In this document: piece by piece, positions 43,663 to 64,000 of the stretch | Numbering within the stretch: the first letter of the stretch is position 1 | How the letters are laid out: every line of letters begins with the position of its first letter | IMG/VR virus record: IMGVR_UViG_3300034105_003151 | Location: 32,001-96,000 of that record | DNA: 64,000 nucleotides | DNA from: a virus | Direction: 5' to 3' (one strand) | Translations under genes and position numbers: made by a program | Notes under the pieces: model-generated | What the model was told of the DNA's origin: nothing | What the model saw: the letters and a program-made list of their open reading frames with translations, nothing else | Database searches by the model: none

Positions 43663-46600
43663 TTAACTTCCTTCGTTTTGTCTATTTTTACGCATGAACG
43701 ATTCTTCAATCGATTTCTTAACTAATTCCCCTAGTGGTCCTGCTAGAACATTTTGTAATATTGCGGCCCCATTAATAATCACATTAACATCGTGTTTTCC
43801 TTCTACCCCAACACTAGAAGGCAATACTTCCTTCATCTGCTGTACAAAATTATTTAGGGTCGTCGCTAATCCGTCCATAGACTGAGATCCAGCTACTGGT
43901 CCTACTGATCCTCCGTTCTGTCTATATATTACCCCGCCATTAGAATATCCTCTGTTGATATTTTCTAATAGGCCGATATTTTTTTGTGTTGACTTTCTAT
44001 TAACAACATACTCACCCTTACTTAACATTGCTGGAACAGTGTCTGTTCCTCTAGGAATCATACCACCAGTACTCCATCCTTCTATTCTTTTAGCGCCCGT
44101 TCTCATAGTATAATTAGCATTTTTCATTGCTGTTATTCTATTATTATACGCCTCTCCTCTTTGCGTTCTTTGGTTCTTAAACTGATTAGCCCTATCATCT
44201 CTCATCTGCTGTAATTCTTTCATTCTTCTTTGACCTATGCTAAACATACTAACACTATCCCCGTTCATGTTTCTGATATAGGCTTCTTGCATAATGTTAT
44301 AGCCCATTCTAGCAAAATCCAAACTTGACATTTCGTGGATATTTTTATTTCCAAAGAAAGTATTTTGAAGCTGCTGATTACCAGCCACATCTGTTTTAAC
44401 ACCACCTCCAAAGGGCATTCCTCCATTATTTAGATATGATGTCGCCCCTGATCTACCTCTAATATCTATACCAGAACCCCCGTTTGTACTGCCTTTACCT
44501 ACTTCAAACTTTCCAATACGAGGAATCGATCCTCCACCGGCTCTATTGATAGACTTTAATAATGGTAGATGTTTTGATGTCGATTTAGCGTTAACAACAA
44601 ACTCTCCTGGCGTAAGCATCGCAGGAACAGTATCTGTACCCTTGGGTTGGAAATTAATTAATTGTCCTTTTGAAGCATATACCATTCCACCATCAACTTT
44701 ATTGATTGGTTTTTTGTTTTTACTATTATGTTTAGCTTCCATGCCAGCTATATCAATATCTCTTGCTTCTCTTTCTGTTTGTTCCCAGGAGTATTCTTCA
44801 TGGTCATCACGATCTAAATCACCAGCTAATTGATTTCTTTTTACCCAATAGTAAAATAGTCTAACAAGACTTGTCTTTGTTTCGCCACTCTTCCACTGTC
44901 CCATTTTTGCAGTAGTTGTCTTGCTATATAATTCGGGATATTTCTCTTCATATCCGCTACCATAGTTTATATCAGGAAACTCGCCTGTTATTTTTTTCTT
45001 AGGAAAAAATAATTCTTTTGGGACATCGTTAATATGTGCAAATCCATAATCTGTTAGCGCTTGTTTTAAAGATTCTGGAGCAAATTTATTCCATTTATAT
45101 GTACCAGATTTAGTTTTTTCTCCTAAATTATTATATCTTTGAGCAGTAATTGTTTCGGCGTTCCAGTCTACTGCATCTATGCTAGCAAACATACCTCCTC
45201 TTTCTTCTGCTGTTCCGTATCTTTTACCTGTATTTCCTCTTGATTGAAAAAATCTAGGATTAGTTTCTCTACGACCACCAGCAGCATTGGTTTCCACCAT
45301 ATCAAAAGAACCTCCTTGTCCCATAAATTCTCCACCATTTTTTAACATGGAGTCTCTCTTTGAGGTATCTTTATCATCCATTAAGTTTGTAACACCAGTA
45401 GATCTTTTTCCTATATCTCTGGAGTTTTGTAAAGTATAAGCGCTTAATGCTTTACTTTGTTCTACAGCCAATGCTCTTGATTCATAAGAAAGTTTTTTCC
45501 AATTAACTTTAACTATTTGATTATTATCTGCTCGTCTTAAAGCTACCCAAGATAAACTATGATCAACGGGTTCTTCAAGACTAGCCATAACACTAAATTT
45601 TCCAGACTTATCAGTAAATTTTGCTGGTTTTGGTCTACTAATTCTCTCGTCTGATCCTGCAAATCCTCCATCTTTTAAGTAATTTACATCTCCACCTTTA
45701 CTACGATTAATACTGTGTAACAATCCCATATTTTTAGATGCAGATTTAGAATTAACAACAAATTCACCAGGGGTCAACATTGCTGGCACGGTATCTGTGC
45801 CTTTGGGCTTGAAATTAATTAATTTACCTCCTGATGCATATACAACTCCTCCGTTGTTAAATGGTGCTGCTTGAGCGCCACGCATTGCTGCTTGTCTATC
45901 TTCTTCTGCTTGTCTTTTTTGATCTTTAGATTCTATTTCTATACCAAGATTTTCAGAATTAGGCGATTGTGTTCTATTTTGTAAATCCTTTTTTTGCCGA
46001 GCCGCTTCTGCTTCTCTGCGTCCTTGATCAACAATTCCAGCGGCCCATCCCGGCCCAAATTGACCATTAACTGGTTGTACTTGATTTGGTACTTGAGTTT
46101 TTTCTAATCCTCTTTCTGTTGCGGCTCTTGCTAGACTTTCGTTTAGTGATGCCGTAGCGGCATTGATACCAGTAATTAGTTCATTAGCTGTATTTTCCAA
46201 TAGTCTCTTTGACTCATCATCAAGTTTAGCTGCTTCTGTTACCGCCTGTTGTTGCATTGCTCTTAATATTTCGGCTTCTGCTCTTAGGGCTTTAAGTACA
46301 GGATCTCTATCTGCTCTTTGATCTGGAGTTTCTCTTAATTGAGCAATTATATTTTTGAGTATAGGATTATTATTTGTTCCTTGGGCTTTAGCCATAGATT
46401 CAAGCATATTAGCTTTCATATTATCTATGTCTGGCCCACTAACTCCCGCTACCTTAACTAATTCATCAAACATTTGCAATGCGTTTTTATTTTCATTAGC
46501 ATACGCTTGTTGAGCTTCCATAACGGCTTCTTGTACGCTCTTACCATCATTAAGCGCTTGAAAATATGCCTGTTGTGCATCGCTAGATTGTTGTATATTG

Positions 46601-49600
46601 CTTACATTTCCTCTGATGGCATTATTCATAACAACAAAACTACGATTCATATCCATTAATTCTTTAGGAGTACTAGTAACCATTTTTTCTGCTAGTCCTT
46701 GACCAGCAGCTTTGGTAGCTTCTAAAAGTCCTACTCTTTTTTGCATTTCGTTAAATATATCACTGATACTAGCTTCTAAAGTTTGTGGAAGCTTTAAAAG
46801 TTCTTCTTTAGTTCTAGCAATAGCAGTATTAAAGGCTTGAACGTTTTGTGTTAATCTACCGGCCATAGCAAAATTATTATTGTTTAAAGCATTAGTAGCC
46901 TGATTAGCAGCATTGTCTCTTTGGTTCTGCATATCTTTTATTTTTGCAGATAGATTTTGTGGCGTTGCCTGGGCTCCTCCTAGCATAGAGTTACGAGACA
47001 CAGATGCCATACGAGCATTGATTTTTTCTCTATAGTCTACCCTGGACCCCAATGCTTCTTTTTGAGAAAGCCTACTACTAGCTTGCATAGACAATAGATC
47101 ATTTTCTCTATCGAATTTTTTGTATTCAATTTCTACTATACTAGCTGTTATCTTTGATAATGCCGCAAAATTATCAGATACAAGCTTAAGACTTTCTTGC
47201 ATTGCTTTGGAGGCTTTATCGGATACTCCTTTTAATGGGCCTGTTATTTTTTCTAAAACAGCATTCCAATCAACGGCTTGTCCATTTTTTGCTGCTTCGT
47301 CTATAGCTCCACTTATTGAATTATTTAGCGTATCTATTAATCCTCTAGATATATTACCTTCTCCAAAATTAGCAACAATATTAGCCTCTAATGTTCTTCT
47401 GATACTATCACCAATATCTGGATTAGCTTTTCCTTGTTTTTCAGCATTTTTAATAGTTGTAGATGTTAATGAATCTAGAGAATCTCCAAAATTAACTAAT
47501 CTTTCAGCAACTGGACCCATATCTCCTAACAGTTTAGAACCAGACGATACGGCTTTGGCACGATCTTCTTTAGAGTATGCAGATGGATTTTTAAGTATAT
47601 CAATATTTTGCTCTGCTGCTGATGCTCTAACTGTTGTTTTACCCGAAATAATCTCTTCGGCTTTATTAGAAATATTAGCTAAATCAAAAGAAGACTTATT
47701 TAAAGACTGAGAAACTACATCAAATGATGTTTCTATGCTAAGTATAGATTTCTTTAAAAGAATTGCTGCTTGTCTGGCTTCTTCTGCCGCCTTTGCTGTT
47801 TTAATAGTTGCGTCTTCGGCAGCAAAAAGATTAGCTGCTTCTGATGCTAAAAATTCTTGTCTCTTTTTTTCAAATGCGGCCTGGGCTTCATCGGCACCCT
47901 TATCATTTCCTGCATATCTTAAGTTTTCAATATATGAATCCTGAGCAGCTACCATTTGGATGTATTCTTTGCTTGATCTAGCAACTAGCATATTTAGCTG
48001 TTTAAATTCTTCTGGGTCCATAGATGTTGCTAATTCAGCAAAAGTTTTATTAGTGGCCTTCATATCGGCAACTATAATATTTTTAGTTTCTTGTAGAGGC
48101 TTACTGAACTGAGAAGAATACTCTTGAGCAAAACTACTAATATTTTTTTGTATATCAGCTTGAGATCCACTAGTATCAAATTTTTTAGGAGCAACCGTCA
48201 ATGCGAGTCCAGCTACAACATCTCGTTGCATCATGGCATTTTGTCTATTTTCTTCTGTTCTATCAGTAACATAAGCAGCGGTATTTTTAGTTAGTCTTTC
48301 TCCTTGCATTTCTAAATCTTTTTTATTTGCCTCTAATTTAAAAGCTTTGGCAGCTTTTTCTGCTTCATAAAATCCCATCGTTAGTCCTATTAATGCTCCA
48401 GCAGTACCTCCAATAGCTGTTCCTAATGGACCAAACATAGAACCAACAGCAGCGCCTGTAGATCCATAATTAAGAGCATTCGTACCCATATGATTTACTT
48501 GTCTACCAGCGTCTGTAGATTCTCCACCCAAAGCAGAAGAAACACTACTAATAGCCGCTCCTCCTCCCATCATAAGGCCAAGACTAGCTAGTGGGTTTGT
48601 TGGTCCTTTGGGTAATTTCTTAGCTATTCCTGTCATTCCTAATTGGGCGAATAGTCCTCTTAATCCTGTAGTTGCTGGCCCCATACCCTTAAAAGATGTT
48701 GCTGTGTTATTTGCTGCTTGTCCAACATTTTGTAATGCCTGTGCTGTTTTTTGAGCCTGTGCAGAAATACCACTTGTTATCCAAGGATTAATATTTTGAG
48801 GAGAAGCCATTTGCCCGGTTCCTCCTGTCCACGGATTTCCTCCTTGGGCAAATTTTTGTACTCCTCCTCCTTTATTGAATCCCTGAACTTTATCAGCATG
48901 ATTCATTTTATGAAGAGAAGATAGTCCTATGCGACTAGCAGCTTTTTTATTTATAACAAATTCGCCAGGAGTTAGTAGCGCAGGAACGGTATCTTGTGGA
49001 GAACCACCCTTGGCAAATTTTTGAATAGGACCACCAAAATTTCTTGATTGAATAATTCCTTGCTGTCTTAAAGATTGGAATGCTTGTAAATCCTTTTTTT
49101 GCGTACTACTCAATATTTCATTATTTTGAGACTTATCAAATATACTCCAAAGATAATCTTTTCTCTTAGGGCTAATCTTTGTTTCTTCTCCACCTCTTTG
49201 TCTATTTTTTACTATTCCTAATTCATTATTAATCTGTCTCTGAGCTTTGGCTTGTAATGATCCATCTCCTGTAAACTGCGCACCGTCAAAAGAAGCTTTT
49301 GCATCTACCCACTTTTTTGGTAAATTACTATAATTATCTTTTAATTGTGATGGTAATCCATCTGGAAAATCAAAAGGTCTTTGAGCTTCTGTTTGTCCAA
49401 AAGGACCAGCCTTCATTGTTCTTAGAACGTCTTCAAATAGGTTTCCTCTGGTTCCTTCATTAATACCACTTAAGAAAGAATCTTGATCTTTTTTATTGAT
49501 TTTAGTTGCTGGAACACCTAAATCTTTAGATAATAAACGAGTAGCATAATTGACCCCTCTAATAACACCCTCATTTATAGCAGCCATAAAAGATTGGTTG

Positions 49601-51468
49601 GTTTCTTTATTTAAACCTTCTTTTATTCCTATTATTTCTTTGGTTTCATTGCCCAGGGTAACTCCAAAAGTTTTTGAAGATGGTTTCTGCCCATATTCTA
49701 ATACGGCAGCACCAACTCTAGGATCTCTTTTTAGATCATCAACAATTCCTCCATTAGCATACTTATTCATTCCTGCTAGTTTATCCGCACCAATAGCCTG
49801 AACAGCTTTTTTACGAATAACAAATTCGCCAGGAGTTAACATAGCAGGAACAGTATCGCCGTTTCCTTGACCGGGAACAAAACCTCCACTAGCAAATCTA
49901 GGAATTGATCCTCCTTCATGGCGACGTAATCCGCCCACAAATCCTCTACCAAAACTAACAGCAGCACCAGCACCTCTAATAGTTCCAATAGCTAACAATG
50001 CTGGCATAATTCCCTTGGCAGCATCTGCTAGTTTGATTAGTGAGCTAGTTAAATCTAGTGTTAATTTAATAAATGTTTGAAATCCTTGGCTTTCACCAAT
50101 AGATCTAACTAAAGCAATAAACTCTTCACGAACCTTAGTCATCTTATTAGCAACACTCTCTTGAGCAATCGCGGCATCTTTTGCAAGAGAACCTTGACCC
50201 TGTTGGGCGACCTTAAGAGCTTCCTGGGCAGTTGCAAATTGTTGAATAAGAGGAATAACCTTACCAATTTGACGGAATCCACCAAGTTCTTCTACTATTT
50301 GACTAAACTTTAGATCTCTTGGGTCTAGTTTGCTTAATCCTTCGCTTAGTCTACGAGAAGCTTCATATGGCCCAACGAACTTTCCTTCTAAGTCCGTTAA
50401 TACAACTCCGAATTGTTTTAGGGCATCGATGGTATCTTTTCTCTGTAGTCTAGTAAAGATGGTTCTTAGGCCAGTAGAAATTGTTTCAGCACTTTCACGG
50501 GTAGTTGCTCTGATACTTGTGAATACTGCAATAAACTCATTAAGAGCATCCTTACCTTCACTAACACCTTTACTAGCTGTTGCGAACACACCTCCCGTTC
50601 TTTGAATAGCTGTAATAATGTCACCGGCTTCTACAGCGAACTTAGCAGCAACAGCATTAACACTACCGAGCGCACCTTCAAGATCACCGGCTCCAATATT
50701 AAACTGTCTCATAAGAGCAATAGAGCCTTCTACCGTATCATTCAGGCTATCGAACGATGGAGCAAGGGCACTAAGGGCAAGAGCTTTTAGGGCTTTTTCA
50801 GTATCGCGGGCACTTAGACCGGCCTGAGCTAAAGTACTAGATACTTTAATTAAGTCATTAGAAGCCACACCAAGATTAACTGATAATCCAGTAATCTCTC
50901 TTACCAATCCATCAAGTCCAGATAAACTAGTATCAGTAACCTGTGCTACTCTAACTAATTCTTTGTTAAATTCAACGAATTCTTTAGTAGCAGAATCTAG
51001 AGAATTACCAAACTTATATATGATACTAGTAACAGTTGCCATAGCAGCAAATCTTCTAACAGCTATAGCACTTTGGCGACCAAATTCTTCAAATTGATTA
51101 CCGCATTGTTGAGTATTTCTTCTAAGTGCTGTTAGACTAGTAGCTAATTGACCAGCAGCAGTGGCATTATTTTGTAGATTCTGTTGTAGGTTATTTAATG
51201 GATTATTAGCTTGACCGATTGCTTGACCCAAAGCTCTAATAGCTTGAGCGGCACTATTTGCATTTGTTGATGTATTATTAAGTACGCTATTTAAATTAGT
51301 TAGCGATGATGTTAGTTTAGTTATGTTTCCCGTAGTATTATTACTTACATTAACATTTACGTTAGCATTAATATTCCCAATCTGCTGCTTAATATTTTTT
51401 ACAATACTAGCAACGTTGGTTGGTCCTTGTAGATTTAGTTGTGCTGTTAAATTAAATCCAGATGCCAT
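43663..51468 (-). CDS. tail tape measure protein (TP901-like core) with repeated modules and cargo domains
   Basis: 2601 aa, Ala/Gln/Lys-rich helical; TP901-type core (LAQAGL, NAVAAKFA, ESAETISTGLRTIF); five DTVPA[ML]L[TS]xGE[FY]V modules. Confidence 0.92.
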   Translation of the reverse strand: MASGFNLTAQLNLQGPTNVASIVKNIKQQIGNINANVNVNVSNNTTGNITKLTSSLTNLNSVLNNTSTNANSAAQAIRALGQAIGQANNPLNNLQQNLQNNATAAGQLATSLTALRRNTQQCGNQFEEFGRQSAIAVRRFAAMATVTSIIYKFGNSLDSATKEFVEFNKELVRVAQVTDTSLSGLDGLVREITGLSVNLGVASNDLIKVSSTLAQAGLSARDTEKALKALALSALAPSFDSLNDTVEGSIALMRQFNIGAGDLEGALGSVNAVAAKFAVEAGDIITAIQRTGGVFATASKGVSEGKDALNEFIAVFTSIRATTRESAETISTGLRTIFTRLQRKDTIDALKQFGVVLTDLEGKFVGPYEASRRLSEGLSKLDPRDLKFSQIVEELGGFRQIGKVIPLIQQFATAQEALKVAQQGQGSLAKDAAIAQESVANKMTKVREEFIALVRSIGESQGFQTFIKLTLDLTSSLIKLADAAKGIMPALLAIGTIRGAGAAVSFGRGFVGGLRRHEGGSIPRFASGGFVPGQGNGDTVPAMLTPGEFVIRKKAVQAIGADKLAGMNKYANGGIVDDLKRDPRVGAAVLEYGQKPSSKTFGVTLGNETKEIIGIKEGLNKETNQSFMAAINEGVIRGVNYATRLLSKDLGVPATKINKKDQDSFLSGINEGTRGNLFEDVLRTMKAGPFGQTEAQRPFDFPDGLPSQLKDNYSNLPKKWVDAKASFDGAQFTGDGSLQAKAQRQINNELGIVKNRQRGGEETKISPKRKDYLWSIFDKSQNNEILSSTQKKDLQAFQSLRQQGIIQSRNFGGPIQKFAKGGSPQDTVPALLTPGEFVINKKAASRIGLSSLHKMNHADKVQGFNKGGGVQKFAQGGNPWTGGTGQMASPQNINPWITSGISAQAQKTAQALQNVGQAANNTATSFKGMGPATTGLRGLFAQLGMTGIAKKLPKGPTNPLASLGLMMGGGAAISSVSSALGGESTDAGRQVNHMGTNALNYGSTGAAVGSMFGPLGTAIGGTAGALIGLTMGFYEAEKAAKAFKLEANKKDLEMQGERLTKNTAAYVTDRTEENRQNAMMQRDVVAGLALTVAPKKFDTSGSQADIQKNISSFAQEYSSQFSKPLQETKNIIVADMKATNKTFAELATSMDPEEFKQLNMLVARSSKEYIQMVAAQDSYIENLRYAGNDKGADEAQAAFEKKRQEFLASEAANLFAAEDATIKTAKAAEEARQAAILLKKSILSIETSFDVVSQSLNKSSFDLANISNKAEEIISGKTTVRASAAEQNIDILKNPSAYSKEDRAKAVSSGSKLLGDMGPVAERLVNFGDSLDSLTSTTIKNAEKQGKANPDIGDSIRRTLEANIVANFGEGNISRGLIDTLNNSISGAIDEAAKNGQAVDWNAVLEKITGPLKGVSDKASKAMQESLKLVSDNFAALSKITASIVEIEYKKFDRENDLLSMQASSRLSQKEALGSRVDYREKINARMASVSRNSMLGGAQATPQNLSAKIKDMQNQRDNAANQATNALNNNNFAMAGRLTQNVQAFNTAIARTKEELLKLPQTLEASISDIFNEMQKRVGLLEATKAAGQGLAEKMVTSTPKELMDMNRSFVVMNNAIRGNVSNIQQSSDAQQAYFQALNDGKSVQEAVMEAQQAYANENKNALQMFDELVKVAGVSGPDIDNMKANMLESMAKAQGTNNNPILKNIIAQLRETPDQRADRDPVLKALRAEAEILRAMQQQAVTEAAKLDDESKRLLENTANELITGINAATASLNESLARAATERGLEKTQVPNQVQPVNGQFGPGWAAGIVDQGRREAEAARQKKDLQNRTQSPNSENLGIEIESKDQKRQAEEDRQAAMRGAQAAPFNNGGVVYASGGKLINFKPKGTDTVPAMLTPGEFVVNSKSASKNMGLLHSINRSKGGDVNYLKDGGFAGSDERISRPKPAKFTDKSGKFSVMASLEEPVDHSLSWVALRRADNNQIVKVNWKKLSYESRALAVEQSKALSAYTLQNSRDIGKRSTGVTNLMDDKDTSKRDSMLKNGGEFMGQGGSFDMVETNAAGGRRETNPRFFQSRGNTGKRYGTAEERGGMFASIDAVDWNAETITAQRYNNLGEKTKSGTYKWNKFAPESLKQALTDYGFAHINDVPKELFFPKKKITGEFPDINYGSGYEEKYPELYSKTTTAKMGQWKSGETKTSLVRLFYYWVKRNQLAGDLDRDDHEEYSWEQTEREARDIDIAGMEAKHNSKNKKPINKVDGGMVYASKGQLINFQPKGTDTVPAMLTPGEFVVNAKSTSKHLPLLKSINRAGGGSIPRIGKFEVGKGSTNGGSGIDIRGRSGATSYLNNGGMPFGGGVKTDVAGNQQLQNTFFGNKNIHEMSSLDFARMGYNIMQEAYIRNMNGDSVSMFSIGQRRMKELQQMRDDRANQFKNQRTQRGEAYNNRITAMKNANYTMRTGAKRIEGWSTGGMIPRGTDTVPAMLSKGEYVVNRKSTQKNIGLLENINRGYSNGGVIYRQNGGSVGPVAGSQSMDGLATTLNNFVQQMKEVLPSSVGVEGKHDVNVIINGAAILQNVLAGPLGELVKKSIEESFMRKNRQNEGS
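44005..49900 (-). repeat. five dispersed DTVPAMLTPGEFV modules within the tape measure gene
   Basis: Asp codons start at 49857, 48993, 45795, 44634 and 44043 (about aa 538, 826, 1892, 2279, 2476). Confidence 0.85.
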
Positions 51469-51554: not shown

Positions 51555-52388
51555 TTAGTCTTGTTTTTGTTCTGATTTTACCTCTTCAACCTTGGCCGGT
51601 TTTTCATCAAAAACCACAGGTTTTCCATCATCGTCTAGGAATGGTTGCTCGTCTACTAGAAATTCACCATCTTTAGTTAGTAGATTACCAAACTTATCAA
51701 TTCTACGATTATCAGTATCTACATAAAACCCGTCTTTATCTACTAGCTTGCCATCACGATCTGTTAAATGGCCTTCTTTATTAACAAAGTGTAGATCAGT
51801 ATTTACGAACTTATACTTTAGTAAGAACTTGTTTTCTGGTAGATTTTTTTCATAACTACTATCTAGGCCATAAAATAGTTCCGCATAATTACGAGCAGCT
51901 TCAGCAGCTAGGGGTTCTGATCCTCTGTTGAGATAATCTTCTAGATTTTCAAAACACTTAGAATTATCTGACTTTTTAAATGCACAAGCAGATACCAGAT
52001 AATCAAACTGAGCATTATCAGCCTGACCTTCCGCACTGTTAGAATCTAGAGAATTTCTCGACATTAACAAATCTCTAATAGACTTGCGACTATCAGCAAT
52101 TTCTAGGGCTAGGGCGCGAGCTTCTGATAATTTAATACCACCCCTAGCAAGTCTCTTTTCTTGAGAGGTGAGATTTTTTTGAAGGTTCTTTAGTTCATTT
52201 TCCTTCTCATCACTCCACATTCCCTGCTTAATCAATACGTCATTGATCTTTCCCCTAACAATTGCTCCGCTACTAATAGCATCAGCAAAAGCAGAGTTAT
52301 ATATCTTCTTGGCTTCTTTTTGATCAGATAGTGTTGCAGAACGAACATAGTACTGAACATCGTCAATTGTAAAATCTTTCGTTTTCAT
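51555..52388 (-). CDS. putative tail assembly chaperone
   Basis: between the tube and tape measure genes; C-terminal DxDG repeats. Confidence 0.5.
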   Translation of the reverse strand: MKTKDFTIDDVQYYVRSATLSDQKEAKKIYNSAFADAISSGAIVRGKINDVLIKQGMWSDEKENELKNLQKNLTSQEKRLARGGIKLSEARALALEIADSRKSIRDLLMSRNSLDSNSAEGQADNAQFDYLVSACAFKKSDNSKCFENLEDYLNRGSEPLAAEAARNYAELFYGLDSSYEKNLPENKFLLKYKFVNTDLHFVNKEGHLTDRDGKLVDKDGFYVDTDNRRIDKFGNLLTKDGEFLVDEQPFLDDDGKPVVFDEKPAKVEEVKSEQKQD

Positions 52389-52699
52389 TCTCTATTCTCC
52401 TTGTCCTTGTTTATAACGGGAAATCTGTAATTATATCGGGTGTTTTTACTACCGGATAGTATTTTAGTTAAATCTTCTTCCAATAGTCGTTTCTGTTTAT
52501 TTCCATGATTTAGGATATTATTCCTAACATCTTGCCACATATTATCAAAATACCCCTCTTGCTCTGTCAATTGATCTGCATTATCTTTATAGTGCGCCCA
52601 CAGATAACCAAAGACATTTTCAAACTTTGACAATGAACCAATCATCGTTGTTTCTAATGCTTTGATCGCCCGCTGAACACACTCTTCTGTATTGTTCAT
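52385..52699 (-). CDS. hypothetical protein (tail module)
   Basis: ATGA-coupled helical ORF. Confidence 0.6.
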   Translation of the reverse strand: MNNTEECVQRAIKALETTMIGSLSKFENVFGYLWAHYKDNADQLTEQEGYFDNMWQDVRNNILNHGNKQKRLLEEDLTKILSGSKNTRYNYRFPVINKDKENRE

Positions 52700-57641: not shown

Positions 57642-58184
57642 AATACTGGACCCTTCTATAAAAGCTCGGTCAAGATCACTTGCTGATAATCCTAGCTGAA
57701 AAGCCAGAGAGTTTATCCACTGATACGATCTTTCGATATATGGAGCATATTCCCATTCTGTTCGTATACTTTCTCTTAAGACCGGATCTTCTATAGAGTC
57801 TATAACAGAATTTATCATATTGAGATCAATACCATTATGAATTAGCCACAATCTAGCTTGTCTAGCACTAATCCTCTCCCCAGGAACAACAGTCTCTAAA
57901 GAAACTAATTTTTCATTCATGTCAGAAACTTTTTTGTCTAAAACGGATACTGGAGATGCTGGGTCAATTGTGATTAATGGATTTTCCCCAGGGTTTCGCG
58001 GTGTCAGTCCTAGATCTAAACACGCCTGAACGTATTCCTGATGATTTGTGCCTATCCAATACACTGTAGTACCAGCACCAACTGTTGTAACACAATTAGA
58101 GGGAGTTAGTCCGTCATAATAAGACACCCCATCTGATAGTATCCAGTATGTTGGCTCTTTTGGAAAAATAATCTGAGAAGTCAT
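57639..58184 (-). CDS. fibre-associated hypothetical protein
   Basis: C-terminal ISARQARLWL...EWEYA...LGLSASDLDRAF domain of the type seen next to fibre genes; ATGA start at 58184. Confidence 0.6.
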   Translation of the reverse strand: MTSQIIFPKEPTYWILSDGVSYYDGLTPSNCVTTVGAGTTVYWIGTNHQEYVQACLDLGLTPRNPGENPLITIDPASPVSVLDKKVSDMNEKLVSLETVVPGERISARQARLWLIHNGIDLNMINSVIDSIEDPVLRESIRTEWEYAPYIERSYQWINSLAFQLGLSASDLDRAFIEGSSI

Positions 58185-61177
58185 GCTTGAAACCCTCCAT
58201 CGGTAATCGTCCATCCGTAGTTTACTAGTCGCTGTCTAGCACCGGAGCTAGCGGCGGTATATTTAGCGGTGCCAAAGTTTACGTTTATTCCTGTGGCCCA
58301 GGGCTTTATTGGATTTCCTGTGGAAGTAGTGGCCCATGAATTCAATAATAAGTCATAGTTGCCACTTCCAATATTAGTATTTATCATGAAATTATTAAAA
58401 TTGGTACAATTACATAGATTCCAACCAGTTAACGATACTTGTAGACTACTACAGTTTGTGAACATATTGCTGACTGTTGTTATTCCTGTAACATTCCAAT
58501 TGTTCAAGCCGTTTCCTATAAATGATGCGGCACCGAAAAACATATTAGAACAGACATTATTTCCTTGAAAAGTCCAGTTTGAAAAATCACCAGAAGTCAT
58601 AAGATTTCCACCAAACATATTGATACAATCTGCACCATTTGGTATAGTCCATCCAGTAATCCCGACCTTCAACGAGCCGTTAGTAAACATAGAAGCAAAA
58701 GTCACACTTTTACTAATGTTCCAATTGCTTAGTCCTGAGCCTGCAAAACTAGTACAACCACCAAACATATTAAACAACGTATTTTTGGTAGTATTCCAAT
58801 TGCTTGCATCAAAATTTAGATTAGCGTTGTTAGTAAATATACTATTCATATTACTTATTCCGCTAGTATTCCAAGATTCCAATCCAACTCCTCTAAAATT
58901 TGTACATCCATTAAACATATTGGTACAGTTGATATTATTCCCATTAAAGATCCAGTTTGAAAAATTACCAGAGTTTATGTTAGATGCCCCCTGAAACATA
59001 CTAGTGAGATTAGCTCCGCTTGCTATAGTCCAGCCACTAATACCAACTGTTGACGAATTAGTATTATTCAAAAACATATTGCTAAAGTTTGTGCATTTGC
59101 TTACATTCCAGTTGCTTAATCCACTTTTTGCAAAATTATTAGCTGTTTGAAAAGCATTTGCCATTGTAGTAACATTAGCAACATTCCATCCACTCAAATT
59201 GTTATTAAAATTAGTGTTGCCCAAAAACATATTAGTCATGTTGCTGATACCACTAGTATTCCAATAGTCCAATCCAATTCCTCGGAAGTTTGTACATCCA
59301 TTAAACATACTAGTGCAATTGATTCCGCTTCCATTGAAGGTCCAATTTTGAAAATTAGCAGAATTTATAGCAGTAGAACTTTGAAACATACTAGAAAGAT
59401 TTGCATCACTAGCTATAGTCCAACCGCTAATTCCAACAGCTAAAGGATTGACTTGGTTCATAAACATACTGCTAAAATTTATACACTTATTTGGCCTCCA
59501 ATTACTTAATCCACTTCCCGCAAAGGAATTAGCCCCTCGAAACATATTAGCCATATTTGTAACATTGCTAGTATCCCAACCACTAACATTAGTATTAAAA
59601 TTCCCGCATAACAAAAACATACCACTCATATTGGTAACATTGCTAGTATTCCAATTGCTTAAATTTCCAACAATCATTGTTGAGTTTATGTTTTCAAACA
59701 TTCGATTCATATCAACAATTCCGCTGGTATTCCACGAGCTAAGATCAACATTTAAACTATTGAATGCCGCCGGATAATTAAAACCTGCAAACATTCTAGC
59801 AGTACTACTATTTGAACCAAAAGTCCATCCTGATAAGGAAATAAATTTACTTGCATATGTATCTCCAAACATTCCTAAGCAATTAGCTCCACTTGCTATA
59901 TTCCAGTTGTCTATTCTTATAGAAGCATTTCCTCCAGCATTTAGACCAACAGATCTTAACATAAAATACTGAAAATTGGTTACTTTGCTGACATTCCAAT
60001 TACTTAAATCAGCAACCATAAAATCACTACCAAACTGAAACATACTGCTCATATTTGTAACACCGCTCACATTCCAATCGTTTAATCCACTCTTCGTTCC
60101 ATTCACACCGTAGAACATATTGTTAAGATTTGTTACCCCTCTTAAATCCCAGCTTGGCATATACAAATTAGTTACGCTAGCGGGGGCACTAGTTCCCGCA
60201 TTAAACATACCATTTGCAAGTGATGTTAATCTCCATCCTGAAAGGGTGCAGTTGTTTAATGTGGCTCCAAGAAACATATTTATAGTATTATTTCCGCTCC
60301 AATTTATAAAAGAACAATCGTTTATATTCGAAAAAGAGAACATCGACGGAGCCCCATTACACGCCCATCCACTAAAAGTAATGTTTGACAGTCTGGTATT
60401 TGTAAATGCATTTCCGAAATTCACCACCAGATTAGTATTCCAATTCCAGTCTCCATTAACGGTAATATTACAATTTTGAAAAGATCTTCTCATATCAATA
60501 ACATTCGAAGTGTCCCATTGGGTAAAATTACTGGTATTAAGATTTGAACATCCATTAAAACAATCGGCCAAATTTCTTCTAAAAGGGGCACCAGCAGCAG
60601 GGTCCGTGGGCTTGATATAAGGAGGAACACTCAAAAGACTAGCTCCGCAAGCAGAGTGATTCACGACGGTGGTGATCGTAACTAAATCCCCATAAGATAA
60701 AATAGCAACCGTTGCCAATCCAGCATGTGGAACATTAGTAATCGTATATCCCATTATTCCTTTAATAACAACTGTGTATATACCATGTTTAGGATAAGTA
60801 TGAGACACAGTAAAGAGACTTATAGAAAGTGCAGTTGGCTCAAATCTTGTTTCATAACTTCCAGGTCTTCTAATCTGAGTTGTTCCCGCCGGAATAAGTC
60901 CTCCACTCGTACCGTCTCCCCAGAATATCTCTATAACAGATCCTTGAAGACTTATTCCCATAGATAAAACAATAGTTGTTGATCCACCCTTAGTAGTATC
61001 TATTACCATCACAAAATCTTTACTACTAAAACCATCATTGTTTCCAATCCTAAAGTCATCAATTTTAGGATAATGATAAGGAGTCGGGACTGTTTGCGGA
61101 ATTCCCAATAAAGGTTTTATTCCAACAAGGTCTGTGGCGACAGAAAAATTTGGAGTACCAAGTATGCCGTTATTCAC
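58181..61177 (-). CDS. DUF285/BspA-like repeat surface protein (putative adhesin)
   Basis: many W[DN]TSNVTNMxxMF repeats; IFWGDG...HTY PKD-like segment; C-terminal GWTITDGG. Confidence 0.85.
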   Translation of the reverse strand: MNNGILGTPNFSVATDLVGIKPLLGIPQTVPTPYHYPKIDDFRIGNNDGFSSKDFVMVIDTTKGGSTTIVLSMGISLQGSVIEIFWGDGTSGGLIPAGTTQIRRPGSYETRFEPTALSISLFTVSHTYPKHGIYTVVIKGIMGYTITNVPHAGLATVAILSYGDLVTITTVVNHSACGASLLSVPPYIKPTDPAAGAPFRRNLADCFNGCSNLNTSNFTQWDTSNVIDMRRSFQNCNITVNGDWNWNTNLVVNFGNAFTNTRLSNITFSGWACNGAPSMFSFSNINDCSFINWSGNNTINMFLGATLNNCTLSGWRLTSLANGMFNAGTSAPASVTNLYMPSWDLRGVTNLNNMFYGVNGTKSGLNDWNVSGVTNMSSMFQFGSDFMVADLSNWNVSKVTNFQYFMLRSVGLNAGGNASIRIDNWNIASGANCLGMFGDTYASKFISLSGWTFGSNSSTARMFAGFNYPAAFNSLNVDLSSWNTSGIVDMNRMFENINSTMIVGNLSNWNTSNVTNMSGMFLLCGNFNTNVSGWDTSNVTNMANMFRGANSFAGSGLSNWRPNKCINFSSMFMNQVNPLAVGISGWTIASDANLSSMFQSSTAINSANFQNWTFNGSGINCTSMFNGCTNFRGIGLDYWNTSGISNMTNMFLGNTNFNNNLSGWNVANVTTMANAFQTANNFAKSGLSNWNVSKCTNFSNMFLNNTNSSTVGISGWTIASGANLTSMFQGASNINSGNFSNWIFNGNNINCTNMFNGCTNFRGVGLESWNTSGISNMNSIFTNNANLNFDASNWNTTKNTLFNMFGGCTSFAGSGLSNWNISKSVTFASMFTNGSLKVGITGWTIPNGADCINMFGGNLMTSGDFSNWTFQGNNVCSNMFFGAASFIGNGLNNWNVTGITTVSNMFTNCSSLQVSLTGWNLCNCTNFNNFMINTNIGSGNYDLLLNSWATTSTGNPIKPWATGINVNFGTAKYTAASSGARQRLVNYGWTITDGGFQA
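58385..59516 (-). repeat. three ~390-bp super-repeats within the DUF285 gene
   Basis: SGLSNW...VGI[ST]GWTI...FxNWxFxG...MF units start near 59516, 59126 and 58739. Confidence 0.7.
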
Positions 61178-61583: not shown

Positions 61584-63800
61584 TTATCTATAAGTTGACC
61601 ATAAGAATAAATTTTTCCCATTGTTCACATTTACACCATTGATAAATAACGAATTATTACTAAAGGTTAATCCGCTTTGACCAATTATGCCCGAGCTTGT
61701 TCCGTCTGAAACTAATACTCTTCCAGAGCCTGGATCGGATACGGAAACACTGCTTCCTCCACCCCCACCAGAAGCGTTAATTGTATAAATTCCGCTAGTA
61801 CTAGTGATAGTTACATTATTACCGGGGAGTAGTTCCTTAACTGGCAACAGCCCGCTGACTCCGCTATCAAAATTTGAAATATCAGAAACTAAATGGGTGT
61901 GTCCACTTAAGCTAACACCCGTATTATTTAGTCTTAGATAATTAAAAACATTCAATCCACTAGATGCAGTACCACTTGCAAAACTTAAACCGTATGTTAC
62001 AAGCATATTAGGTACTATAGCACCTACAAGCGGATTATTATTTCCAATAGAAGTGTTTCCATCTTCGTCCACATTAAAGCTAGGAGTGTTACAGACAAAG
62101 AGGGTATCTACATATAAGTTATTAAATACGGCATCGTTTAACTGAGCATAAGGAGTTAGTAATCCACTAACACTGCTATTAAAATTACCAATATCTGAAC
62201 TTGTTATTCCGCTGTTACGCCAAAGCGATCCGTCATATTTCAAAAATTGTCCACTAATCGCTCCGGTTGTTGCAACATTATGTAGTTCTTCTAGTTCAAA
62301 ACCATTTTGTATAGAAACCTCTATGATCCCTTGATTAACGTGATTTCTAACTATTTTGCCGACAACTACCATATGATTTGGGGCAGTTGGTTTTATGGCT
62401 GTTAAGTTGCCAGAAACACTCGGGCTTAGATATAGAGTACTGCCCTCCACAGCACCAAACTGGTCAGTATTAACATCAATCAATTCTCCAAAAACAACAA
62501 CATCTCCAGCACTATTATTATTTATCTGACTAGCGGTAATGCCGTAAGTTTTACTAGATCCAGCTTCACTAGAAGCGATAGATTTTTGTATTGTTGGCCT
62601 ATTCCCATGACCTCCATTAATATAAACCACAGTCATCTTTGGTAAAGTAGATCCGGTCCTATTTTCGCATCTTGTTATTAATGAAGAAGCACTACTAGCA
62701 GCAACACCATATGCTGTCACAGTATAAATTCCAGAAGTCACCCCTATCTGTATTCCAGAACCGGCGAGAATGTCTTTTACAGAAATAAGATTATTAACCG
62801 ATGTATTAAAGTCTGTTATTTGCGAGCTAGTATGAGTATGCCCGCTTAAACTTACAGGAACTCCGTTTACCCGCAGGGTTATAAAGTTGCCACTATTTAA
62901 TAAAGCATAGGGAGTTAGCAGTCCACTTACTGATGAATTAAAGTTTGTAATATCGCTTGAAGTATGATTATGTCCTACTAAGCTGTAATTGCCACTTGGC
63001 TGTAAACCTGTTACAGAAACAGAGAATAGTCCGGTTGTTGAAACGATATTAACATATCCACTACCAATCACATTTTTAACTGGTATTAATGAGCTAACAC
63101 TAGAGTTAAAATCTGTTATTTGTGAGCTAGTATGCGTATGTCCACTTATGCTATAGTTTCCACTAGGCTGTAATCCCGTGACCGATACCGTAAAAACCCC
63201 TCCAGAAGACGCTACAGAAGCGTATCCGCTGCCCAATATATTTTTTACTGACAATAGTCCACTTACGCTAGAATTAAAATCAGTTATTGCTGAAGCTGTG
63301 TGGGAGTGTCCGCTGATGCTAACAGGAGTTCCGCTTATAGACAGAGAATTAAAATTACCTGTACCAGATATTACGTTTATGGATACTCCACTATTTAATA
63401 GACTCTGTATCTGAGAACTACTAAGACCGAATGTTCCGGTTGTATATATTGTGTATAAATTTCCATTTTGACTTACAGAGATACCGCTGGTTCCTGAAAG
63501 AGTAATATTTTGAGCAAGAGCATTTATAGTTATTGATCCGTCTAGTCCAGAAGCAAATACTATTCCCGATCCAGAATATAATCCACTCACTCTATTTATA
63601 GGTAATAATCCTGTTGTATAACTTATAGGATAGGTGTCTGGAAAATCACTAGGAAGTATTTTATCTCTATTACTAATTTCTAAGTAAACACCACCAGAAG
63701 TAATTATTTCTATAGAAGGAACATCTGTGCCACTAGCCCCAACGGCTACTTCTAAAGAATAAGACGGTTGTTCTATTATTTCAATATTAAAATCTGTCAT
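61584..63800 (-). CDS. tail fibre-like protein with GHxH..ITDFNSSV repeats
   Basis: five GH[TSN]H repeats, S/G/T/N-rich; ATGA start at 63800. Confidence 0.7.
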   Translation of the reverse strand: MTDFNIEIIEQPSYSLEVAVGASGTDVPSIEIITSGGVYLEISNRDKILPSDFPDTYPISYTTGLLPINRVSGLYSGSGIVFASGLDGSITINALAQNITLSGTSGISVSQNGNLYTIYTTGTFGLSSSQIQSLLNSGVSINVISGTGNFNSLSISGTPVSISGHSHTASAITDFNSSVSGLLSVKNILGSGYASVASSGGVFTVSVTGLQPSGNYSISGHTHTSSQITDFNSSVSSLIPVKNVIGSGYVNIVSTTGLFSVSVTGLQPSGNYSLVGHNHTSSDITNFNSSVSGLLTPYALLNSGNFITLRVNGVPVSLSGHTHTSSQITDFNTSVNNLISVKDILAGSGIQIGVTSGIYTVTAYGVAASSASSLITRCENRTGSTLPKMTVVYINGGHGNRPTIQKSIASSEAGSSKTYGITASQINNNSAGDVVVFGELIDVNTDQFGAVEGSTLYLSPSVSGNLTAIKPTAPNHMVVVGKIVRNHVNQGIIEVSIQNGFELEELHNVATTGAISGQFLKYDGSLWRNSGITSSDIGNFNSSVSGLLTPYAQLNDAVFNNLYVDTLFVCNTPSFNVDEDGNTSIGNNNPLVGAIVPNMLVTYGLSFASGTASSGLNVFNYLRLNNTGVSLSGHTHLVSDISNFDSGVSGLLPVKELLPGNNVTITSTSGIYTINASGGGGGSSVSVSDPGSGRVLVSDGTSSGIIGQSGLTFSNNSLFINGVNVNNGKNLFLWSTYR

Positions 63801-64000
63801 ATTTGACACTCTAAAGCGGTTGTGCTTTGACTAAATCTCTTAACTATAGTAATAACTCCATAGAGTATTCTTTCTGTAAAAAATCCTCCATTAGTATAGA
63901 AATTATCTGGACTTTGTAATTCAAAGTCATATTTTGCAGTATTAAATAGGTAGCTGTTGGTAGTGGTTGCGGGCCATAATAAAGTGAATTTTCCATTAGG
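63797..64000 (-). CDS. partial gene, BppU-like baseplate/fibre-attachment protein
   Basis: open frame from the window edge: GKFTLLWPATTT...AKYDFELQSP...RILYGVITIVKR. Confidence 0.55.
   Translation of the reverse strand, partial: PNGKFTLLWPATTTNSYLFNTAKYDFELQSPDNFYTNGGFFTERILYGVITIVKRFSQSTTALECQI

Follow-up and report, generated by a model that had tools for sequence, protein, structure and literature searches.

The giant tail tape measure protein (TMP) analyzed here belongs to a phage known from metagenomic DNA, and comparison with its relatives indicated that recombination adds, removes, and exchanges segments of the protein (cassettes), with crossovers in or at a short module that is repeated along the protein. 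The gene lies in a 64,000-nucleotide stretch (the window) that covers bases 32001-96000 of an IMG/VR virus record; the record is 151,300 bp long and was rated complete by CheckV. A single open reading frame (ORF) of 2601 codons with an ATG start occupied positions 43663-51468 on the minus strand. In the encoded protein, residues 193-395 matched PF10145 (PhageMin_Tail) in Pfam (77.6 bits, cut-off 33.2, E = 1.5e-21), the PHROG tape-measure families phrog_28, 167, and 4211 also matched, and a search of the whole TMP against NCBIfam gave no match. By these matches the ORF is a TP901-type TMP, and the TP901-like core proposed in a first-pass annotation of the window was thus recovered. The interpretation that we favor, and regard as probable, is that each module would be an autonomous joint inherited from a sub-terminal unit of ordinary TMPs, that domains would be spliced in at this joint, and that the cassettes would exit with the TMP.

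A search of the TMP with the regular expression DTVPA[ML]L[TS].GE[FY]V returned exactly five matches, at residues 538, 826, 1892, 2279, and 2476, where the first-pass annotation had placed five module cores; from the protein composition, approximately 2e-11 matches would be expected by chance. Every GG motif that the annotation had listed around the modules was also present, and 12 of the 13 [FYW]x2-3GG motifs lay in module neighborhoods, which cover 23% of the length of the query TMP. Across the TMP family, the density of GG motifs was 1.8 per 100 residues near modules and 0.15 elsewhere (12-fold); GG was found upstream of 87% and downstream of 97% of modules, at exact offsets that varied, the commonest being kept in only 60% of modules. 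A hidden Markov model (HMM) built from 439 copies across the family described a module of approximately 70 residues, in which GG-hydrophobic-hydrophobic-Y-A-x-GG is followed by about ten residues, DTVPAMLTPGEFV, K-x-A helices, and [FY]xxGG. The core was modeled by AlphaFold (AF2) as a beta-hairpin with two short helices after it, at moderate confidence (predicted local distance difference test score, pLDDT, about 55-72), and Pfam searches of the modules and inserts gave nothing usable. The module copies of the query differ at most synonymous sites (between the cores of modules 3 and 4, the proportions of synonymous and nonsynonymous differences, pS and pN, were 0.83 and 0.024), indicating that the duplications are old and that selection acts on the peptide; judged from these codons, it is purifying selection at the protein level that maintains the modules, which are not recent DNA repeats.

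A word-indexed protein search retrieved 2560 relatives of the TMP, 1430-4552 residues long, many of them on contigs of approximately 150 kb. For a detailed comparison, 121 proteins (the query and 120 relatives) were cut at the modules and the pieces were clustered by BLAST. Every one of the 121 had two to seven modules, and the layout was an N-terminal core (N-core), a module, a position that we call slot A, a module, the ruler, a module and a cassette one or more times, a last module, and the C-terminal end (C-end); in cluster numbers, the query reads 0-7-1-52-22-2 (Table 1). The clusters comprised a universal N-core of approximately 515 residues, a near-universal ruler (median 1082 residues), and a common C-end of approximately 130 residues; another 133 clusters, 84 of them with a single member, held the variable pieces. 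The three inserts of the query fell into the separate clusters 7, 52, and 22, in accordance with the earlier description of them as mutually unrelated. Among the variable pieces there were 34 slot-A families and 94 post-ruler families, and no family was shared between both positions; cassette exchange thus keeps positional homology, and the families are strictly slot-specific.

When the TMPs of the relatives were aligned, homology breakpoints were concentrated at the modules; they fell inside modules in 54-68% of cases, with 9-10% expected by chance. The first-pass proposal that the modules act as recombination-swappable junctions was strongly supported by an indel of exactly one unit, by a return of DNA identity at module 5, by an enrichment of breakpoints in modules, and by pairs of proteins that share a core but differ in cassettes. 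The nearest relative, P0002 (locus L002), had 95.7% DNA identity with the window across the tail genes, minus exactly 1161 nucleotides, which correspond to 387 residues, the spacing of modules 3 and 4. In a three-way alignment, the single module of L002 at this place was a chimera whose left part equals module 3 and whose right part equals module 4, and the crossover lay within a shared 14-nucleotide stretch, AATTAATTAATTTC, at codons 1882-1886 and 2269-2273. The phages of P0003 and P0004 (L008 and L010) had approximately 90% DNA identity to the window in the flanking tail genes; similarity of the DNA ended after residues ~751-758, an island of 86-92% identity was found at module 2, and approximately 90% identity was regained at residue 2473, three codons ahead of the module-5 core. 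At the protein level, the identities of P0003 and P0004 with the query were 95 and 98% in the N-core, 80 and 51% in slot A, 62 and 33% in the ruler, and 96 and 99% in the C-end, respectively (96-99% for the C-end in P0002-P0004). Among 87 pairs with N-cores at least 90% identical, 53 differed in cassette content, and in six such pairs that were inspected similarity resumed within a few residues of the module start. The breakpoint set consisted of 7333 internal ends of pairwise high-scoring segment pairs of at least 50% identity and at least 150 residues; 63% of them fell inside a module and 82% within 20 residues of one, compared with 9.6 and 15% for random positions. The enrichment in modules was 6-7 fold, and it was still present at identities of at least 70% and at least 85%.

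Lake-water metagenomes gave a second view of the modules. In four of them, many otherwise unrelated contigs matched the window in a module core only (that of module 1, 3, or 4) and diverged at once on both sides of these islands of approximately 45 nucleotides. Phages that occur together could plausibly recombine at such islands. The lake-run contigs indicated that freshwater lakes are a habitat of the phage. A cassette-less joint was not seen in the contigs of the four runs, a result from which absence does not follow because contigs drop rare variants. Because all of the sequences come from metagenomes and assemblers may be misled by repeats, the multi-module gene or the cassette differences might be ascribed to chimeric assembly. 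The module copies, however, share at most ~14 identical nucleotides, and the L002 crossover stretch, at only 14 nucleotides, is too short for assembler collapse. In two of the runs (from 2020 and 2024, each a possible source of the record), contigs spanned the whole TMP gene with zero differences, two further lake runs contained identical short contigs covering pieces of cassette 52 (the segment between modules 3 and 4), the fragments P0122 and P0123 covered cassette 52 independently, and the architecture was repeated in hundreds of independent assemblies. An assembly artifact is thus hardly conceivable.

The origin of the module was suggested by cultured phages. A tblastn search with module 3 detected a single copy in the annotated TMPs of 71 cultured phages of Gordonia, Streptomyces, Burkholderia, Ralstonia, Nodularia, and others, and in a Burkholderia and a Streptomyces phage the module lay 65-76 residues from the C-end. 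In a one-sequence test, the module HMM matched residues 733-786 of lambda gpH (19.4 bits, E = 3.5e-8), and FATGG, a PA...GEFV hairpin, a helix, and YATGG are common to both. This part of gpH has no Pfam model, PF09718 covering residues 627-701 only. There was also a weak match to the TMP of phage Chi (8vjh_Q, residues 1327-1368, E = 0.39 in a PDB-wide search). On the strength of these alignments, the module is homologous to gpH 733-786, and module 5 of the query is the equivalent of the single copy in ordinary TMPs. In a freshwater lineage, one unit of approximately 70-100 residues, consisting of [FY]xxGG, the beta-hairpin, short helices, and [FY]xxGG, is iterated two to seven times along a giant TP901-type TMP; it would have descended from the one sub-terminal copy that ordinary TMPs have, that of lambda gpH included. 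Its copies fence independently evolving segments, namely slot A and the one or more cassettes that lie past the ruler and before the hub-docking C-terminus, and each copy would be a self-contained protein joint at which foreign, partly globular domains could be spliced in with the core, ruler, and hub end undisturbed. At infection the cassettes would exit the tail together with the TMP, and they might act at the envelope or inside the cell. Candidate roles for the module are docking and processing, on the pattern of lambda gpH.

In the subfamily of P0045 (L012, 8001-15830), with TMPs of approximately 2300-2700 residues, there are two modules only, both flanking slot A, and a long Ala/Gly/Pro-rich stretch stands ahead of the C-end instead of a sub-terminal module; hub docking therefore cannot be the general function of the module. 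The cultured 139-kb cyanophage vB_NpeS-2AV2 of Nodularia has a 3404-residue TMP (L007, 6379-16593) with a complete module and a second, partial copy at residues ~996-1111, far from the C-end. This TMP is otherwise unrelated to the query and gave no calibration of tail length; the phage is a possible experimental model for an internal module.

The homology with gpH also bears on processing. In lambda, a C-terminal fragment of approximately 14 kDa, gpHC, is cut from gpH in a glycine-rich region at about residues 690-730, leaving gpH* of approximately residues 1-710; the exact cut site and the protease are unknown (PMC12617516). Residues ~690-817 of gpH are unresolved in the structure; gpHC stays in the tail tip, where residues 818-849 are docked to gpI (PMC12617516). 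The match at gpH 733-786 and the cut just upstream of it would make the module the start of gpHC, and the last module plus the C-end of the query TMP amounts to approximately 15 kDa, a size similar to that of gpHC. For the first-pass proposal that the modules act as cleavage or threading signals, this cut next to the homologous part of gpH is a genuine precedent. The pb2 protein of T5 is cleaved after R1127, at a place that separates its ruler from its enzyme domain, and the virion retains the fragment (PMC10038345). Each module might accordingly mark a lambda-gpH-type cut in its glycine-rich flank, and the TMP would then be a polyprotein of up to six pieces (the core, a slot-A piece, the ruler, two cassette pieces, and a gpHC-like C-terminal piece of approximately 15 kDa) that are released separately at infection. 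The GG motifs on both sides of most modules fit such cuts, but their positions are only loosely fixed, the strong conservation lies in the hairpin rather than at a scissile site, and the gene was never split at a module in the relatives examined. Cleavage was demonstrated for lambda gpH and would be a prediction for the query TMP, and the missing cut site and protease of lambda further weaken the argument. The query TMP matched PF10145 alone in Pfam, with neither recognizable enzyme domains, several of which mark viral or polyvalent polyproteins, nor an embedded peptidase domain. We consider cuts at the modules unlikely on balance; they would add to the joint interpretation rather than exclude it. 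Somewhat more doubtful is the wider idea that the iterated module is a recognition or autoprocessing unit of general TMP maturation, the reaction that in lambda yields gpH* and gpHC, so that giant TMPs would be cut at every module into virion-borne proteins, the nuclease-like one included, which enter before the DNA.

A short resemblance in T5 was also noticed. The residues that follow the cut in pb2 (AEGGMMYPG; L013, residues 1121-1140) resemble the GG-hydrophobic-hydrophobic-aromatic start of the module, which would favor a cut there; the module HMM did not match T5 pb2 (score -3), and the AEGGMMY resemblance is to be taken as a short-motif lead and no more.

The segments fenced by the modules differed in character. 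In slot A, E679 (GNLFE), D700 (FDF), and D722 and K724 (VDAKAS) were invariant in 19 TMPs of 38-82% identity, and an ordered E...D...DxK set typical of PD-(D/E)xK nucleases is thus present. This domain was found in about half of the 120 relatives, also within larger slot-A families, and AF2 predicted a compact alpha/beta block at residues ~575-754 with pLDDT mostly 85-94 and a dip to 60 at residues 685-694. Searches against nuclease families gave no match in Pfam at E <= 10 and none with phmmer in PDB; the Atlas feature search returned a best score of 0.86 with no named family, and fold searches (PDB Foldseek, VIA wide, Atlas, and BFVD) gave no match with a model that included the floppy modules. 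The only free-standing homologue was a 206-residue probable fragment. Of the first-pass label 'nuclease-like', the invariant motif stood and a structural or family match to a nuclease was not obtained; since no search linked slot A to a nuclease or a named family, the label derives from the motif. A nuclease-like domain is a real possibility, to which we give somewhat less than even weight, and slot A may hold a metal-dependent nuclease or a domain that binds DNA ends.

Cassette 52 was confirmed as an orphan, as the first-pass annotation had described one of the inserts: an exhaustive phmmer search with residues 1936-2255 found two fragments of near-identical phages only among 1.84 billion representatives, and the Atlas feature search gave a best score of 0.75 with no named family. 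The insert that had been called SHD1-like was borne out in part. Residues ~1943-1998 of the query aligned with residues ~3080-3127 of P0030, in which residues 3080-3133 match SHD1 (PF03983; 32.2 bits, cut-off 23.7, E = 9.7e-8), but query residues 1905-2278 did not match PF03983 in Pfam at E <= 10. An AF2 model of residues 1860-2601 had a mean pLDDT of 41.5, the input being probably misaligned against multi-module relatives, and was uninformative for cassette 52 (approximately 30); in cassette 22 it contained helices at residues ~2369-2449 with pLDDT of 72-87. The ruler had a glycine-zipper hydrophobic stretch at residues ~960-1040 and a weak match to PF20721 at residues 988-1032. As judged by protein identities of only 33 or 62% in the phages of L008 and L010, the ruler block, which is the length-determining part, was also exchanged as a cassette. 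By analogy with lambda gpHC, whose residues 818-849 bind gpI, the C-terminal end probably represents hub-docking helices.

Deletion or duplication of TMP segments alters tail length in lambda and TP901-1, and all segments of the query might likewise be extended helical ruler, with cassette gain and loss changing tail length only. At 1.5 A per residue, the total lengths of the 121 TMPs (1524-4506 residues, the two shortest perhaps incomplete) would correspond to about 230-680 nm. The 5002-residue TMP of Thermus phage P23-45 defines an extremely long tail (PMC10770324); some cassette families, for example cluster 10, are ruler-like in composition, and cassette 22 is partly helical. The ruler block, by contrast, was length-conserved (quartiles 1009-1189 residues) while total TMP length varied three-fold, slot A is predicted to fold as a compact alpha/beta domain, and aromatic residues make up 10.6% of cassette 52 compared with 4.2% of the ruler. 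We regard a purely length-setting function as improbable.

Several points limit the evidence for modules as junctions of exchange and as joints for foreign cargo. The breakpoint pairs are not independent of one another, alignments naturally extend into whatever island is conserved, and between one fifth and one third of the breakpoints lay outside modules. The cassette families are bound to their slots and are not freely interchangeable, and no enzyme family is on record in Pfam for the variable segments of the 120 relatives, where the families on record are PF10145, PF03983 (one protein), and PF06009 (two proteins). The first-pass proposal of the TMP as a delivery vehicle for interchangeable effectors is therefore plausible but weak for this family, there being one cassette that is enzyme-like, and only by its motif.

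TMPs determine the dependence of phages on inner-membrane proteins (ManYZ for lambda, PtsG for HK97), and exclusion proteins such as Ltp target TMPs. For lambda, ManYZ and mutations in gene H are both mentioned in the literature (PMC12617516). The variable segments might in this respect be host-specific parts of a trans-envelope channel or binding surfaces, diversifying under the pressure of host range and superinfection exclusion, with the modules as joints from which nothing is cut off. Slot-specific cassettes lacking enzyme families would be expected of such adaptors, as would the very fast cassette turnover among near-identical phages of the same lakes, and SHD1 is a peptide-binding type of domain. 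The E/D/D/K set of slot A, kept over identities of 38-82%, resembles an active site more than a diversifying binding surface. An entry adaptor of this kind is a tentative alternative that we do not expect to hold, and joints that carry exchangeable domains out of the tail remain our preferred interpretation.

Table 1. Features of the TMP gene in the window (residues refer to the TMP, positions to the window)
Feature	Residues	Positions	Strand	Basis and remarks
TMP gene	2601 residues plus stop	43663..51468	-	ORF, PF10145, PHROG TMP families, gene order of relatives
N-core	1-511	49936..51468	-	Cluster 0; 121/121 proteins; 60-98% identity; PF10145 at 193-395
Module 1	512-582, core 538-550	49723..49935	-	HMM 76 bits; AF2 beta-hairpin plus helices
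Slot-A cassette	583-798	49075..49722	-	Cluster 7; alignments, AF2; predicted compact alpha/beta domain
Module 2	799-878, core 826-838	48835..49074	-	HMM 74 bits; nucleotide-identity island in two relatives
Ruler	879-1862	45883..48834	-	Cluster 1; 118/121 proteins; helix-favoring composition
Module 3	1863-1937, core 1892-1904	45658..45882	-	HMM 99 bits; left arm of indel crossover
Cassette 52	1938-2247	44728..45657	-	Orphan, aromatic-rich; SHD1-like stretch ~1943-1998 (~45475-45642)
1161-nucleotide (387-residue) module-to-module unit		44650..45810	-	Not in L002; blastn offsets and three-way alignment
Module 4	2248-2317, core 2279-2291	44518..44727	-	HMM 92 bits; right arm of indel crossover
Cassette 22	2318-2452	44113..44517	-	Cluster 22; partly helical (AF2)
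Module 5	2453-2521, core 2476-2488	43906..44112	-	HMM 72 bits; sub-terminal copy, homology to lambda gpH 733-786
C-terminal end	2522-2601	43666..43905	-	Cluster 2; 68/121 proteins; helices

Tail genes surround the TMP gene in an order that recurs in the relatives: ORFs of 344, 104, and 277 residues precede it, and ORFs of 573 and 1839 residues follow. These neighbors had no family match; the 344-residue ORF is a candidate for the tube protein, the 104- and 277-residue ORFs are of chaperone size, and those of 573 and 1839 residues are of distal-tail or hub size. The 104-residue ORF (52385-52699, minus strand), just upstream of the 277-residue ORF, is by its position a candidate tail assembly chaperone; its sub-threshold match to the TaqI restriction endonuclease (E = 5e-4) is probably due to chance. 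In the same structural block, a 998-residue protein (58181-61177, minus strand) has eight DUF285 (PF03382) repeats (E = 4e-102), with DUF285 proteins of other lengths (656 and 764 residues) at the matching place in relatives, and may be a variable surface or receptor-binding protein. A 741-residue protein (61584-63809, minus strand) matching the phage-tail repeat PF12789 (E = 4e-9) is probably a fiber. Of two proteases that the first-pass annotation had listed in the window, a ClpP-like gene (PF00574, 58.8 bits) was found at 20-715 on the plus strand, in a non-structural block far from the head and tail genes that also contains a ribonucleotide reductase small subunit gene (PF00268; 6856-7830, plus strand). 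The papain-like protease was not recovered, PF00112 being absent from matches across the 151-kb genome at E <= 1. A distant ClpP gene among non-structural genes and a missing papain C1 peptidase could be held against cuts at the modules, but neither the presence of the one nor the non-detection of the other bears on TMP processing. Megablast and tblastn searches of 50,697 phage records found no close relative of the TMP, the best match being the PF10145 core at approximately 24% identity in SPbeta-like phages, and no related loci were confirmed in viral contigs.

We did not find a published TMP family with an iterated, gpH-homologous joint that acts as the crossover point of cassettes. Such a joint, if real, would explain how a protein under tight assembly constraints takes up and loses foreign domains quickly, as in phages of the same lakes whose TMP ends are 98-99% identical and whose interiors differ. 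The family offers natural variants with two to seven copies for asking what the sub-terminal unit of gpH does and where and how TMPs are cut. It also defines dozens of orphan domains, the one with the conserved E/D/DxK set included, and these probably precede the DNA into the host.

Enzymes embedded in TMPs are already known from T5, TM4, and P23-45, and the cassettes of the present family are unusually poor in recognizable enzymes. Mycobacteriophage TMPs, among them that of TM4, reportedly contain embedded peptidoglycan-hydrolase motifs that aid infection, as described by Piuri and Hatfull in 2006; like the query they have foreign motifs embedded, but these are recognizable cell-wall enzymes without a repeated fencing module. 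In the T-even adhesins gp37/gp38, glycine-rich motifs or His boxes are said (by Tetart in 1998 and Trojet in 2011) to bound hypervariable segments and to serve as recombination points. The likeness lies in short conserved protein motifs used as crossover sites within one structural gene; the adhesins are a different protein with a receptor-binding function and much smaller segments. Lambda gpH resembles the query in the position of the last module, ~120 residues from the C-end, but has one copy and no inserted domains, whereas the query has five copies that fence unrelated segments, and the lambda TMP belongs to PF06791 and PF09718 rather than PF10145. Phage T5 is similar in that pb2 is cut between its ruler and a C-terminal part bearing an enzyme, a fragment kept in the tail, but there is one cut, the cargo is a known peptidoglycan hydrolase, and the module HMM does not match. 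The gp96 protein of P23-45 is a TMP fused to a virion RNA polymerase, evidence that an enzyme joined to a TMP can function in the host (PMC10770324). This giant TMP of 5002 residues shares with the query a non-ruler domain, functional in the host after ejection; it differs in having a single N-terminal enzyme of known family, and neither the abstract nor a term search of the paper revealed a repeated joint module or cassette exchange (PMC10770324). The polyvalent proteins of phages and conjugative elements, associated with virions or transfer and described by Iyer et al. in 2017, are likewise very large, string together disparate domains, are proposed to be delivered together with the DNA, and are sometimes proteolyzed; they contain many recognizable enzyme domains and embedded peptidases, neither of which the query TMP has, and TMPs are not mentioned in their description (PMC5512222). 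The Sle1-type effectors of actinobacterial contractile injection systems combine a TMP-derived scaffold with exchangeable functional domains, but they are injection-system cargo with a single C-terminal functional domain rather than a phage tail ruler (PMC13277306). Polyvalent proteins and Sle1-type effectors are functional analogues of the query TMP and not its relatives.

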